Sequence record: NC_052658.1
Reading direction: 5' to 3' (one strand)
DNA: 64,000 nucleotides
Origin: Escherichia phage nepoznato
Shown here: piece after piece, positions 1-39,860 of the stretch
Numbering within the stretch: position 1 is the first letter of the stretch
Layout of the letters: every line of letters begins with the position of its first letter
Made by a program: the position numbers and the translations under genes
The notes under the pieces: model-generated
The model's database searches: none
The model's input: the letters and a program-made list of their open reading frames with translations, nothing else
What the model was told of the DNA's origin: nothing

Positions 1-225
1 CTCATGCCAACATAGCGACAAGGTGGGCCACTTGATTATAAATCACACAAACACTTATTTATCAATGGTTTGGCAACTTCATCATATGACGGAACATTGT
101 CAACTGATCCCGCTCATGACAAGCAGACTATTATTTATATGAGAATGATTATTATTTAAACGTTTATTAACATAAAAACTAAAATAAATCAAGATTATTC
201 TGATTTTATTTACGTTTAAGAGAAG

Positions 226-4966: not shown

Positions 4967-5188
4967 TTATTTACTTACAACCAGTTGATAACCGTTTTCT
5001 ACATTGCTAAACACTGTTAGCCCGTCGTCGCGCTCACTCATCAACAAGCAAGGCGATAACATGCGTTCGGCAGCTTTACACTCATTATAAGCGGCAGTGA
5101 TGTCTCCTGCTGCCTTGTCTTCTGTAGTAAATGTCTCGTTTACGTAAACCTGACCAGCAACAACGGCGACAATAGCAAAAGTAATCAT
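4967..5188 (-). CDS. Hypothetical early protein (73 aa)
   Basis: ORF; TTGACT-N-TATAAT promoter at about 5231-5262. Confidence 0.55.
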   Translation of the reverse strand: MITFAIVAVVAGQVYVNETFTTEDKAAGDITAAYNECKAAERMLSPCLLMSERDDGLTVFSNVENGYQLVVSK

Positions 5189-5262
5189 GATGTTTCCTTG
5201 TTAATAGTGGTTTCTCTTCTCTATAGCGCCCATTATAAAGCGCTATAACGAAAAGTCAACGA

Positions 5263-5430
5263 TTATTTTTTAAGGCTTAAAGTACCTAACTTGTCAGCAT
5301 GACGCAGACCAGGGAAGATCCATTTGCCTGATTCATCTTTTACCGGAGCTTTAAGCGTAGCGCCCAGGTTGGCGGCGTTAACTTTACGTGCAACGTTGCG
5401 AGCGGCTTCACGGGTAGCGCAAGTGATCAT
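5263..5430 (-). CDS. Hypothetical small protein, about 55 aa, not in the ORF track
   Basis: ATG downstream of leader hairpin 5457-5477. Confidence 0.45.
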   Translation of the reverse strand: MITCATREAARNVARKVNAANLGATLKAPVKDESGKWIFPGLRHADKLGTLSLKK

Positions 5431-5526
5431 GATGTTTTCCTCTTCTCTTTGTTAGGCGGTGGACCATTCCGCCGCCTTGATGTAATACAGTTTACTCTTT
5501 TTCTTTCCGGTGTCAACAATCTTTTT

Positions 5527-5754
5527 TCAGATTAATTCATCCAGGCATAACAGGCGATCAACGTTGAGATCGGTTAGGCTGATGGTTGGCACCTGGTAGG
5601 ATTCGATGTACTCAACGCTCGACCATTGCCCGAAGTTAGCGACCGCCCAGCTATTCAAGGAAGAGTGAAGATCATCCCCTTTCTTCTCGGTGATAACTGC
5701 TACTACCTGGGAAGTGCCAACGGTGCCGGATACGCGAACAATATTGATAGCCAT
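5527..5754 (-). CDS. Hypothetical early protein (75 aa)
   Basis: ORF with own promoter. Confidence 0.6.
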   Translation of the reverse strand: MAINIVRVSGTVGTSQVVAVITEKKGDDLHSSLNSWAVANFGQWSSVEYIESYQVPTISLTDLNVDRLLCLDELI

Positions 5755-5769
5755 GATTTTTCTCTCTTC

Positions 5770-5834
5770 TGTTAGGCGGGGCGCTTGTCGCCCCTATGTG
5801 ATACATCTTACACTAATTTTAAACGTTGTCAAAT
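5770..5834 (-). promoter_or_regulatory. Early promoter plus leader stem-loop (GGCGGGGCG/CGCCCC stem)
   Basis: TTGACA near 5829-5834; hairpin 5772-5790. Confidence 0.55.
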
Positions 5835-6257: not shown

Positions 6258-6623
6258 TTATAAATCTTTTTTACGTTTAACATCGCTCGCATGACTGTAT
6301 ACAGTGATCCCATTATCACGGCAAAAACGGGAAAGATACGCGCCGCGTGAAAACTCTTTACCTTCCATATTAATAACCTTGCTAAATTCTTCCAGGGCGA
6401 CGGTATCAAAATGATCACCATAACCATATTGAAACGGAACGTTAACCACCTCGATCAGTTTACCGCCGATCTCAACGTCAACCATTAAAGAAAAATATGT
6501 ATTACCGTAGGACTGTTGAAACCAACGACGGGCGCTAATATGCACCGCCTCAATGCTGGATAGTTCAATTTTAGCCGTGTCAGCCAGGGTAGCATAAGAG
6601 GAAACATTAATATTAATAGCCAT
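6258..6623 (-). CDS. Hypothetical early protein (121 aa)
   Basis: ORF with own promoter. Confidence 0.6.
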   Translation of the reverse strand: MAININVSSYATLADTAKIELSSIEAVHISARRWFQQSYGNTYFSLMVDVEIGGKLIEVVNVPFQYGYGDHFDTVALEEFSKVINMEGKEFSRGAYLSRFCRDNGITVYSHASDVKRKKDL

Positions 6624-6641
6624 GATGATAACCTTTTTATT

Positions 6642-6701
6642 GTTGGCGGCACCATTGCCGCCCTACGTGATAAACTATAACAGAATTTTAAACAATGTCA
6701 A
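6642..6701 (-). promoter_or_regulatory. Early promoter (TTGACA-N17-TATAGT) plus conserved leader TTATCACGTAGGGCGGCAATGGTGCCGCC
   Basis: -35 at 6696-6701, -10 at 6674-6679. Confidence 0.65.
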
Positions 6702-6711
6702 ACGTTTTTTC

Positions 6712-6957
6712 TTAGTTTGCGAAATATGGCGCGGCGGCTGATGCCGTTAAGCTCCAAGTGATTTGACTATCGATCAAGTATTCTTCATTCTTGATCCGCA
6801 CGGTATCAATCGAGAAGTTACTAAAAGGTTTACTTTTAATTTTACGAACAACCGTTACACGACGGTTATTTTTCATCTCTTTTAACTGAATCCAGGCGAA
6901 ACCTTTTTCATTAACGAAAATTTCATTGTGGTTAGTGATAGATGATAAGTGTTTCAT
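6712..6957 (-). CDS. Hypothetical early protein (about 81 aa); start moved to MKHLSS
   Basis: ORF-track N-terminus (MYHVGR...) is a read-through of the leader element. Confidence 0.55.
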   Translation of the reverse strand: MKHLSSITNHNEIFVNEKGFAWIQLKEMKNNRRVTVVRKIKSKPFSNFSIDTVRIKNEEYLIDSQITWSLTASAAAPYFAN

Positions 6958-7049
6958 GATTTTTCTCTCTTCTGTTTTGAGCGGTGGACCATTCCGCCGC
7001 CCTACGTGATACATATTACTACTTTTTCAAACGTTGTCAACAATCTTTT

Positions 7050-9171: not shown

Positions 9172-9438
9172 ATGACAAATACTACATTACACCTTATGCA
9201 CTCATTGGGCTGGCAAGGCGGCACGGTGCACCAGGTAGCAAGCGCAACGGGCTTAAAGGTTGAAACCGTTCTCAACCTATCAGATTATAAGGTCGAGGAT
9301 AGTTATCAATTACAAAGTTACACGGGCGGTTTTACCTGGGCGCGTGAAGGTGGGAAAGAAAGCAATATACCACATTGGGGAAAAGGTGATATTCATTTTT
9401 GGCTAGGTGTCCTGACCTGGCAAGAAAACAAAAAATAA
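9172..9438 (+). CDS. Small helix-turn-helix protein, putative transcriptional regulator (88 aa)
   Basis: Segment GGTVHQVASATGLKVETVLNLS resembles an HTH. Confidence 0.45.
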   Translation: MTNTTLHLMHSLGWQGGTVHQVASATGLKVETVLNLSDYKVEDSYQLQSYTGGFTWAREGGKESNIPHWGKGDIHFWLGVLTWQENKK

Positions 9439-9442
9439 TCTT

Positions 9443-9471
9443 GACAAGCCCAGGGATCGGGCTTATACTGT
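9443..9471 (+). promoter_or_regulatory. TTGACA-N17-TATACT promoter whose spacer contains hairpin AAGCCC/GGGCTT; promoter versus weak terminator is ambiguous
   Basis: Direct reading. Confidence 0.4.
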
Positions 9472-9690
9472 TTTACATACAGAAGAGGAAGCGCCACCCC
9501 CACGGCGTAAAGGCGGGGCTAACATACCAGGGGCACTGGTTGGAAGGTTGATCGCCGGTAGGCTGGGCGCTATATATTTGTAAAGAAATGTAAAGATAAA
9601 ATAATCGCTTGCTTTCCTGGCTGGATCTGTTATTCTTATTACATGGCGAGGGGACACGGGAGCGCGAGACAAACACCGCCCCTGCGCGTC
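9472..9690 (+). ncRNA. Candidate structured non-coding RNA: GC-rich island with nested complementary segments and no plausible ORF
   Basis: Compositional outlier downstream of the promoter-like element. Confidence 0.25.
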
Positions 9691-9694
9691 ATTC

Positions 9695-9800
9695 TCTAAA
9701 TGAGAATGATTATCATTTACTTTATTAAATAAGAATCAATCTCATTTATAAACCTAAATGCGAATCATTATCATTTGCATTTCCACATGAGAACTCTTCT
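9695..9800. repeat. Four iterated palindromic sites of about 19 bp (AATGATTATCATT; ATGAGAA-CTC-TTCTCAT), Fur-box-like
   Basis: Direct reading; related motifs at 141-160, 455-475, 1014-1045. Confidence 0.5.
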
Positions 9801-9825
9801 CATTCCCATCTGCATAAATTTTTGT

Positions 9826-10030
9826 AAACTTTAAATTTTGCTTTTGTACTTTCATTTTTGTAAAAGCAAAAAAACTTTAAATACTGTGGGCGCGCAAAAT
9901 TTTTAAAATTTTCCTTGACTTTTGAGTTTTGTTTTGTATCTGACATTTTAAGATAATTTTCCTAAACTTTAAATTTTGGTTTTCAACTTTCACTTTTGTA
10001 AATTCTTAAAAAGTTTAAATAATTTGAGGG
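9826..10030. repeat. Two copies of a direct repeat of about 56 bp (AAACTTTAAATTTTG...TTTTGTAAA...TTTAAATA)
   Basis: Copies at about 9826-9885 and 9961-10018. Confidence 0.6.
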
Positions 10031-10162: not shown

Positions 10163-10198
10163 AGGCTCTCTACGGTGCTGTAGGAGCCTTATTTCTGT
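10163..10198. terminator. Bidirectional hairpin terminator (AGGCTC...GAGCCT) with T-rich flanks on both strands
   Basis: Direct reading. Confidence 0.5.
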
Positions 10199-10244: not shown

Positions 10245-10787
10245 TCACAAATATCGTCTTTGCGGTATTTTGTCTGGGAAAAGTATTTCGATCAGTTTGT
10301 TATGATATTTACCTAAAAGATTTTGCCCTTTCCAGTTGACCGGATTTAGCACCCCTGGTTCATACATCCCCATTCCAATTCCGTAAACCTTATCGTAGGG
10401 GCTTGCTTCAACAAACGTTTTGTATTGGTAAAGGTGTAAGTCTGCATACAAATCTGGATTCTGTACATATTTCAAGCATAAACCTCGCATAACAATACGC
10501 TCACGGTTCTCTTCCCATACGTTGTTATCAAAATCCGACACTGCCCTACCCATACGTTTGTAATAAGCTTGGATCTTCTCATCTTTCCGTATCAAACTAT
10601 GAGTCAGAATAGCCTGTGCAGTGTTGTGGTCATTAAAAAGCAAAGCTTTACGCCACATCATATATTGTTCGACACAATTAAATGTTTGATTGTAACCTGG
10701 TTCGGTTTCTGTAAAGGGTGCAATATACCAATTACTAAACACATCTTTATGTGAAAAGAAGAATACATAATCATCAGTTATTCGCAT
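10245..10787 (-). CDS. NADAR (YbiA-like, DUF1768) family protein
   Basis: Recalled YbiA blocks FSNF/FSNW, EHYFQAQKF-like, MGR, and LVEASP-D-WG-G-like C-terminal half. Confidence 0.8.
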   Translation of the reverse strand: MRITDDYVFFFSHKDVFSNWYIAPFTETEPGYNQTFNCVEQYMMWRKALLFNDHNTAQAILTHSLIRKDEKIQAYYKRMGRAVSDFDNNVWEENRERIVMRGLCLKYVQNPDLYADLHLYQYKTFVEASPYDKVYGIGMGMYEPGVLNPVNWKGQNLLGKYHNKLIEILFPDKIPQRRYL

Positions 10788-39630: not shown

Positions 39631-39860
39631 TGGGAGAAGTCATTGAAGTCAATTTTCGCACTAAACAGAAAGTGCAAAAATATGTCGTTATTAAAAACAT
39701 TTGCGTTGTCTGCTTCAATACAGTAATATACGACTCACGACGCGGAGAAAACGAAAATGAACCTTACATTGAAATTTCTAAGAACAAAGGTCAATGTATT
39801 TGTAAGAACTGTGCAGTAGCTATTAAGGAGGTTGTAAATGAAAACGCTTGGGACCAATGA
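39630..39860 (+). CDS. Small zinc-ribbon protein (about 76 aa)
   Basis: CxxC...CxxC; TGATG overlap. Confidence 0.5.
   Translation: MGEVIEVNFRTKQKVQKYVVIKNICVVCFNTVIYDSRRGENENEPYIEISKNKGQCICKNCAVAIKEVVNENAWDQ

Follow-up and report, generated by a model that had tools for sequence, protein, structure and literature searches.

Organization of the Locus

We analyzed a stretch of 64,000 nucleotides (nt) from Escherichia phage nepoznato (NC_052658.1; hereafter the window, at its full length) with a focus on a GC-rich island at positions 9472-9690, which probably comprises two tandem functional genes for structured small RNAs, here called RNA1 and RNA2, each with its own putative sigma-70 promoter. 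The two RNAs are new phage small-RNA families that are unannotated and absent from Rfam. The window belongs to a phAPEC8-like phage of Escherichia (Phapecoctavirus). Over the 1.25 kb that surround the island, it is 98% identical to Phapecoctavirus genomes, e.g., DIJ07P2 and SKA64, and more than 130 related records were found for this region. The phAPEC8-like phages are virulent myophages of ~150 kb belonging to the subfamily Stephanstirmvirinae. The island sits in a gap of ~800 bp that is free of open reading frames (ORFs), carries no annotation in most records, and is gene-free in three annotated relatives (anhysbys, ASO2A, and ESCO13). The gap is bordered by a small plus-strand ORF (9172-9438) and a minus-strand ORF (10245-10787), and the remaining neighboring genes are all on the minus strand.

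The initial annotation had described a single island, much richer in GC than its surroundings, between a promoter-like element and a palindrome array. The GC content of 9472-9690 is indeed 52.1% vs. 39.5% for the window, which is within the top 0.1% of all 219-nt segments. However, the island is not one unit but two, with an internal promoter. A first GC-rich block (9486-9573, 63.6%) and a second one (9644-9690, 72.3%) are separated by a spacer of 28.6% GC (9574-9643), and the richest 88-nt stretch of the whole 64 kb (64.8%, starting at 9484) falls within the first block. GC skew is positive across the island, and the transcribed strand is G-rich. The promoter-like element was found as described, with 11/12 consensus positions, and the palindromes begin at ~9696. 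The absence of a plausible plus-strand ORF also held, since only mechanical TTG ORFs (9399-9551 and 9609-9728) overlap the island. The features of the two units are as follows:

9441-9469, plus strand: promoter P1 (TTGACA-17-TATACT), assigned to RNA1
9446-9464, plus strand: GC hairpin within the P1 spacer, called by the terminator-like scan
~9475-9571, plus strand: RNA1, with its start inferred from P1 and a putative 3′ end
9492-9507, plus strand: RNA1 helix S1, CGCC (9492-9495) with GGCG (9504-9507), closing an 8-nt C-rich loop
9498-9518, plus strand: RNA1 pseudoknot, loop CCCC (9498-9501) with GGGG (9515-9518)
9523-9542, plus strand: hairpin P3 of RNA1, with a bulge of one nucleotide and a loop that varies
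9543-9561, plus strand: RNA1 3′ tail, GAAGGTTGATCGCCGGTAG
9580-9596, plus strand: direct repeat GTAAAGA-AAT-GTAAAGA between the units, with 10-bp spacing, just upstream of the P2 -35 hexamer
9609-9636, plus strand: promoter P2 (TTGCTT-16-TATTCT; TTGCAA-17-TATATT in relatives), assigned to RNA2
~9643-9710, plus strand: RNA2, a closed stem-loop with the motif GAGACAAACACC and a hairpin end
9643-9692, plus strand: core of RNA2, a GC-rich stem enclosed by the closing helix (9643-9648 paired with 9687-9692)
9666-9677, plus strand: RNA2 motif GAGACAAACACC
9688-9710, plus strand: AU-rich hairpin TCATTCTC/GAGAATGA followed by TTATCATTT, found by the terminator-like scan and in the minimum-free-energy fold, overlapping the first palindrome

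Conservation and Distribution

Comparison with related phages demonstrated that the island is conserved in 230 phage records. These were retrieved with a 262-nt query and included members of distant Vequintavirinae genera (Mydovirus, Seunavirus, Certrevirus, and Henunavirus) at 70-82% identity. When a 7.9-kb query was used, the distant Vequintavirinae matched window positions 9472-9776 only, i.e., the island and the first palindromes, and true rV5-type phages matched 9599-9752 only. The island with the first palindromes is the sole nucleotide-level match within 8 kb between Stephanstirmvirinae and Vequintavirinae. The order of elements was the same in all loci fetched: the RNA units are followed by palindromes, then by ~0.5 kb of repeats, and finally by a minus-strand ORF. 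A small plus-strand ORF is located upstream in most loci, and none is annotated there in CR9, KaOmega, and DU_PP_I.

A covariance model of RNA1 (R1) gave 66 hits in 64 of the 71 loci, and none in chance loci, in slur16, or in a T5-like phage. Pattern scans of viral and metagenomic collections recovered further divergent copies. The scan of a bacterial genome collection yielded only one phage contig and two chance matches, and blastn against E. coli genomes produced no match to the island.

Structure of RNA1

The R1 model matched positions 9470-9571 at 91 bits (E = 5e-26), with one copy in the window. RNA1 begins with a purine-rich leader, which is followed by helix S1 with its C-rich loop and by an A-rich linker. 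Base pairs were counted in two alignments, one made with MAFFT (39 sequences) and a model-based one (55 distinct sequences). In each of them, 85% of the cells were paired vs. 18-42% when the partners were slid by 1-3 columns. The covariation score was 0.144-0.145 vs. 0.053-0.056 in shuffled alignments, and none of the 500 shuffles reached it.

The base pairs of hairpin P3 and of the pseudoknot covary, as do those of the RNA2 closing helix. Five of the seven P3 pairs show two-sided changes (pair 55:77 is AU in 36 cases, GC in 18, GU in 1, and unpaired in 0), and the P3 loop varies from a GAAA tetraloop (4 nt) to ~11 nt. One pair of the pseudoknot switches between C-G and A-U (45 CG, 6 AU, 4 other), the neighboring position is occupied by AU, CG, or GC among divergent members, and the variants from Erwinia phages alter the GGGG segment. 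Helix S1 is uninformative because of its invariance: three of its four pairs do not change at all, so covariation neither supports nor contradicts it. The 3′ tail is likewise nearly invariant in the alignments. Its CGCCG segment can be paired with the 3′ strand of S1 (CGGCG) in 91.5% of cells; changes are one-sided wobbles only, and neither covariation nor any pair altered on both sides was detected for this alternative pairing. Two further candidates were rejected. The helix GGCGG/TCGCC, proposed by RNAalifold and by minimum-free-energy folding, is broken in 12 divergent sequences and shows no covariation, and a tRNA-Ala-like acceptor pairing (GGGGCUA/UAGCUC) conflicts with the covarying pseudoknot and involves a tail without co-variation.

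Structure of RNA2

The closing helix of RNA2 was paired in 92.5% of cells vs. 22-56% after sliding, and its pair 7:53 occurs as GC (9), AU (8), and GU (4). Each RNA2 variant folds singly into a closed stem-loop. The motif GAGACAAACACC is present in all variants, as GAGACAA(A/T)CACC or as GAGTACAAAACACC, and also in both RNA2-like units of the rV5-type phage slur16. The AU-rich hairpin at 9688-9710 is the likely 3′ end of RNA2; the 3′ strand of the closing helix is shared with it. With UUAUCAUUU behind it, this hairpin is a candidate for the rho-independent terminator with a U tail that marks Hfq-type trans-acting small RNAs. An 18-codon ATG frame on the plus strand of RNA2, starting at 9644, was rejected as a candidate gene, its start being ATA in many relatives.

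Promoters of the Two Units

P1 outranks every other site in the scanned 1.8 kb. Relatives retain both of its hexamers (-35 and -10), and the spacer between them is variable. Among 36 distinct upstream sequences, the best match with a 17-nt spacer reached 9-12 of 12 consensus positions in 25, in a scan that mis-detects promoters spaced differently. Within the P1 spacer, the hairpin is formed by differing sequences in the relatives: GCCCGGC-GAAA-GCTGGGC in phiTE, GGGGC-GAAA-GCCCC in the locus L041, and CCAGGC-TTGC-GCCTGG in the locus L050. It appears to be the terminator of the upstream plus-strand ORF, nested in the promoter.

The P2 hexamers are also conserved over a variable spacer and were called by the scan in KB57 and CR9 at 9/12. 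The window copy is weaker, with 8/12 by our own count, and the scan did not call it. Promoter-like sites are enriched in this region (16 vs. 4.7 expected in the window), and in KB57 7/7 are on the plus strand. The repeat GTAAAGA-N3-GTAAAGA is kept in most lineages and absent from the L039/L041 group; a regulator of P2 could bind there.

Modularity and Insertion of Homing Endonucleases

In the loci compared, the promoter plus RNA behaves as a gene-like module. In the metagenomic relative L033, a gene for a 197-amino acid (aa) HNH endonuclease (6420-7013; PHROG 953, 7.6e-79) is located directly after GATCGCTGGTA of RNA1 and is followed by a second, divergent promoter-plus-RNA1 copy; Klebsiella phage NDO71 carries the divergent RNA1 allele of L033 as its only copy. 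In another metagenomic relative, L037, RNA2 is interrupted by a 154-aa ORF (4978-5442) with a weak HNH match (1.9e-6); behind this ORF lies a further RNA2 copy, which is of a different type and is preceded by its own promoter (TTGACA-17-GATAAT). The truncated first RNA copy becomes the leader of the endonuclease gene in both cases. Pfam gave no significant match for the two inserted ORFs, and PHROGs resolved both. Phages of the rV5 type have no RNA1 at this position; slur16 (770-1040), one of them, instead contains a pair of RNA2-like units (GGGAGACAACCACCGG and GGGAGACAATCACCGG), both of which have a separate promoter and a palindrome behind them.

Two breaks lie directly after the GGTA of the RNA1 tail, namely the endonuclease insertion of L033 and the point where the LTH01 record ends. 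Homing endonucleases are drawn to this locus, as they are to strongly conserved targets in general. The island is marked as functionally important because it is the only DNA-conserved stretch in 8 kb and because it has received these insertions.

Coding Potential and Search for Known Families

On the minus strand, two of the three frames are open across the island for 67-70 codons (9463-9672 and 9473-9676), and several GenBank records annotate hypothetical proteins there. In composition-preserving shuffles, one open minus frame was obtained in 10.6% of trials and two in 0.3%; since so few shuffles give two, the second open frame is not explained by composition. The comparative data point the other way. 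Substitutions show no third-position excess (0.56, 0.49, and 0.60), no frame is conserved among relatives, and the best peptide matches switch frames and span 21-79 residues. In addition, near-identical phages differ in island length by 1-3 nt, including amounts not divisible by three, through changes of a G-run in the P3 loop. This argues that the minus-strand protein calls are probably spurious, with the depletion of stop codons not fully explained. On the plus strand, no ORF that the RNAs might regulate was found between 9439 and 10244, and none is annotated there in well-annotated relatives.

No known family was recognized. Rfam 15 gave 0 matches in the window at the gathering threshold and nothing at E <= 10 within 9472-9690 on either strand, and five divergent relatives gave no relevant match at E <= 1. 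ARAGORN detected 0 tRNA or transfer-messenger RNA genes in the window. No similarity to ToxI or pseudo-ToxI was found in the homologous locus of phage phiTE or in the island, which has no tandem repeats. Identity with the pseudo-ToxI locus of phiTE was rejected: the escape locus is at 106,714-106,772 in that genome vs. 39,680-39,818 for the element described here. A mimic of the repeats of clustered regularly interspaced short palindromic repeat (CRISPR) arrays was rejected too, the forward scores being at chance (I-E 8, p = 0.55; I-F 9, p = 0.12). The reverse complement of the I-E repeat gave a short weak match to the island (score 10, p = 0.03). In E. coli genomes, blastn revealed no complement above chance, although short seeds would escape both this test and that in the window.

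Surroundings of the RNA Units

The following features flank the two units:

9172-9438, plus strand: upstream ORF, 88 aa, PHROG 19316 (function unknown), 9e-53
9696-9806, no strand assigned: palindrome array of ~29-bp units with the core TGAGAAT-N-ATTaTCA
9817-10026, no strand assigned: AT-rich direct repeats, ~25% GC, two 72-nt copies that are 82% identical
10163-10189, no strand assigned: hairpin flanked by A/T runs on either side, which closes the ORF-free region

The 88-aa product of the upstream ORF had no significant match in Pfam; in our reading, it may carry a helix-turn-helix-like stretch (GGTVHQVASATGLKVETVLNL). Homologs are present in muut, Kashira, LTH01, and phiTE, and unrelated small ORFs are found instead in Mydovirus and Seunavirus. 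Because some lineages keep this ORF and others carry unrelated ones, it is not an obligate partner of RNA1.

The palindromes resemble the sites of the host regulator Fur. The Fur-box consensus GATAATGATAATCATTATC is matched at 15/19 positions at 9702, tied with 455 as the best in the window, and the 7-1-7 form TGATAATnATTATCA at 13/14 positions at 9701, tied with 1033; shuffled sequences rarely reach this level. In phage 4MG, the first palindrome unit is a perfect TGATAATGATTATCA. The palindromes are candidate Fur boxes; their ligand could just as well be a phage protein. The same palindrome family is found in the T5-like phage HASG4 (1490-1680 and 1995-2020), in a large non-coding region, where it shares 85% identity over 55 nt with window positions 9728-9782 and adjoins DnaA boxes (TTATCCACA). 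This repeat region of HASG4 is the one discussed for the T5 injection stop signal (bioRxiv 10.1101/866236). A host protein is suggested as the ligand because the palindromes are common to unrelated coliphages. A similar palindrome copy and Fur-like matches were also observed in the first 1.1 kb of the window (130-178, 455-473, and 1028-1047), which hints at a possible second regulatory region there.

The direct repeats occupy the same place and differ between lineages: CGATCGAGACC is repeated 6 times in phiTE, a 63-nt unit 3 times in KB57, GCTATCGAGACC 4-5 times in L037, and the 72-nt unit twice in the window; their positions in relatives are 1900-2162 (L005), 1835-2037 (L004), and 5620-5781 (L037). 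Such lineage-specific repeat sets resemble the iterons of replication origins. The plus-strand promoters P1 and P2 are directed into a stretch of 25% GC, and iteron-like repeats are present in all lineages examined. A strand-composition switch, as expected at an origin, is absent: the cumulative GC skew falls on both sides with only a local bump, and the genes flanking the locus share one orientation. The hairpin at 10163-10189 is given in the ASO2A annotation as the rho-independent terminator of a minus-strand gene; from the A/T runs on its two sides, we suggest that it may be a bidirectional terminator.

The rV5 genome paper marks this region with an unlabeled “non-coding” box and reports a skew analysis that failed to place the origin. 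This box was the sole find of the literature search, in which no transcriptome, origin map, or printed form of these sequences was found. Separately, ~8 of the 60 listed genome records begin or end within ~2 kb of the locus, which exceeds the expectation for random starts (examples are the end of PP430345, PQ002170 at 94-304, PP357458 at 410-625, and PQ631072 at 852-1115). The break points differ, so the clustering could stem from assemblies broken at the repeats and need not mark a physical terminus.

Interpretation

The reading that we favor, and consider moderately probable, is that the island consists of two tandem small RNA genes. The initial annotation had listed a phage small RNA among its options, and this option is the best supported one: the promoters are conserved and specific to each unit, nucleotide conservation is syntenic, base pairs show compensatory changes, indels break the frames and leave no conserved coding signal, the promoter-plus-RNA units are modular, and there is no match to Rfam, to tRNA, or to the host. 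According to this reading, the host RNA polymerase would transcribe RNA1 from ~9475 and RNA2 from ~9643. RNA1 would be ~90-100 nt long, with a single-stranded purine-rich leader, a compact H-type pseudoknot, a hairpin with a free loop, and a conserved tail. RNA2, with ~50-70 nt, would form a closed stem-loop presenting GAGACAAACACC and end at the AU-rich hairpin over the palindromic protein-binding sites. Both would be more than by-products of transcription and might act in the folded state, either by binding or sequestering a protein or by short base pairing through the invariant unpaired segments (the RNA1 tail and the RNA2 motif), which is the weakest step of the proposed mechanism.

Several observations weigh against this reading. 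The transcript ends of both RNAs are deduced from the sequence, and no intrinsic terminator after RNA1 was recognized by the scan of the window; CR9 offers only a weak candidate, located in the P2 spacer. Targets for the RNA2 motif and the RNA1 tail gave only chance-level matches in the 64-kb window. The dense internal complementarity claimed in the initial annotation was only partly borne out by single-sequence folding: RNA2 with its 3′ hairpin reached z = -3.3, but neither RNA1 alone (z = -1.5) nor the entire island (plus strand, z = +0.36; minus strand, z = +0.88) folds better than shuffles. For this reason, the case for structure rests on the comparative data. In these, the many close relatives among the sequences mean that covarying cells overcount evolutionary events, and the model-based alignment (A4) was fitted to the helices S1 and P3. 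Neither S1 nor the 3′ tail varies, so that no covariation is seen in either, and both could be signals at the DNA level. For RNA2, RNAalifold returned no consensus structure on the MAFFT alignment, because the interior differs by lineage. The excess of G-U over A-C cells is small (11 vs. 6), and the strand was therefore assigned mainly from the promoters. Finally, the surroundings look like a replication origin, in which case the transcripts would have a role in cis.

The latter possibility is the principal alternative, which we regard as appreciably less probable but serious. The initial annotation had proposed a packaging or replication cis-element; there is no specific support for packaging, and the replication role is kept as a rival, since the island is directed towards an ORF-free region that is rich in AT and contains palindromes and iteron-like repeats. 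The island would then be the transcribed arm of an origin, P1 and P2 (with a third promoter in some lineages) would fire into this region, and the GC-rich transcripts would activate or prime DNA synthesis, with folding relevant to primer formation. The ORF-free region of ~800 bp is conserved in position and closed by a terminator-like hairpin, the sequence downstream of the island has 25% GC with repeats differing by lineage as iterons do, putative palindromic binding sites are present, promoter-like sites are enriched, the GC skew is positive across the island, and the rV5 authors could not place the origin. However, the cumulative skew has no inflection beyond the local bump, both flanks have the same gene orientation, the covarying pairs and the free loop size are not needed for simple priming, and the RNA units vary and duplicate as independent modules. 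Transcription-primed phage origins are not known to need a conserved RNA fold. An origin is compatible with the production of folded RNAs, and both readings can coexist. A combination of the two, which we consider speculative and rather doubtful, is that RNA1 and RNA2 are origin-control RNAs of rV5-, phi92-, and phAPEC8-like phages: the pseudoknotted RNA, possibly through a switch between S1 and the tail, would decide whether transcription passes the palindromes, at which a host factor (possibly Fur) is bound, and enters the iteron-bearing AT-rich region to start DNA synthesis. If so, phage replication would be initiated in response to a host signal.

The remaining explanations rank below the small-RNA and origin readings. 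It is improbable that the units are cis-acting leaders, i.e., a riboswitch-like pseudoknot or a put-like antiterminator governing read-through past the palindromes. Both units start directly at promoters, RNA1 contains a pseudoknot in addition to a compact hairpin and an A-rich linker, the CGGCG-CGCCG pairing of S1 and the tail would permit alternative folds, the 3′ strand of the RNA2 closing helix also takes part in the next hairpin, and a truncated copy leads the endonuclease gene in L033 and L037; however, the native locus has no downstream plus-strand ORF, no riboswitch family matches even at E <= 10, the alternative pairing does not covary, and neither a ligand nor an antitermination target is evident. 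We consider it very improbable that conservation acts on the DNA only, with the GC blocks as protein sites or a packaging signal and the RNA irrelevant. S1, the 3′ tail, and the RNA2 motif, where conservation is highest, are invariant and fit a DNA motif equally well, protein-site-like repeats adjoin them, and one genome record ends inside the tail, but compensatory changes, tolerated G-U pairs, and a loop of 4 to ~11 nt are not predicted for a duplex DNA site, each block lies at a fixed distance from a conserved promoter, and the record ends near the locus are at differing positions. There is even less to recommend one or two small minus-strand proteins, in spite of the two frames open over 67-70 codons, the minus-strand neighbors, the ORF calls in several records, and a minus frame that is open throughout in roughly half of the relatives. 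At least one such frame arises in 10.6% of shuffles, and the frame-switching peptide matches, the lack of a third-position excess, and the 1-3 nt differences in the P3 loop are joined by TTG or GTG starts with no ribosome-binding site seen. A recently acquired fragment, which the initial annotation had considered and whose donor would be a host or another mobile element, is a practically negligible possibility. Although the GC content far above that of the surroundings would fit such an origin, the proposal was rejected because conservation is syntenic across two subfamilies and many genera as well as in metagenomes, there is no E. coli match, and the only true hit in a bacterial assembly is a phage contig.

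Isolates of phAPEC8, phi92, rV5, PVP-SE1, and related phages are widespread, and therapy and biocontrol make use of them. RNA families with promoters, folds, and boundaries give annotators concrete labels and offer a small target for experiments. The comparison also flags probably spurious opposite-strand “hypothetical protein” calls in the deposited genomes.

Comparison With Known Systems

A precedent in the same phage group is pseudo-ToxI of Pectobacterium phage phiTE, an antitoxin-mimic non-coding RNA (PMC3475682). Like the units described here, it is a non-coding RNA, and phiTE also has RNA1 and RNA2. The two loci differ in position in that genome (106.7 kb vs. 39.7 kb), and the island has neither ToxI-like 36-nt repeats nor similarity to ToxI.

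Compact H-type pseudoknots are known from the preQ1-I riboswitch aptamers and from the leader of T4 gene 32. The 5′ part of RNA1 has the same topology, namely a short hairpin, an A-rich linker, and Gs that pair with the Cs of the loop; unlike these RNAs, it has unrelated motifs, no covariance-model match at E <= 10, and no regulated ORF downstream. The put RNAs of HK022 are antiterminators that modify the polymerase. By analogy, RNA1 and RNA2 would also be folded elements directly downstream of host-type promoters and followed by termination signals; in contrast to put, there are no downstream genes to antiterminate into.

Among phage-encoded stable small RNAs of unknown role are species 1 and 2, RNA C and D, of T4. 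RNA1 and RNA2 differ from them in showing no relation by sequence or in Rfam, in lying outside a tRNA cluster and beside origin-like repeats, and in having their own sigma-70 promoters. As in T4, they are short, non-coding, without an assigned target, conserved within a group of virulent phages, and probably made by the host polymerase.

Transcription-primed or transcription-activated origins include the T7 promoters 1.1A and 1.1B with their AT-rich region, the R-loops at T4 oriF and oriG, and RNA II of ColE1. The locus shares with them tandem promoters directed into an AT-rich, repeat-bearing, ORF-free region and a G-rich transcribed strand. It differs from them in that here discrete covarying folds duplicate as modules.

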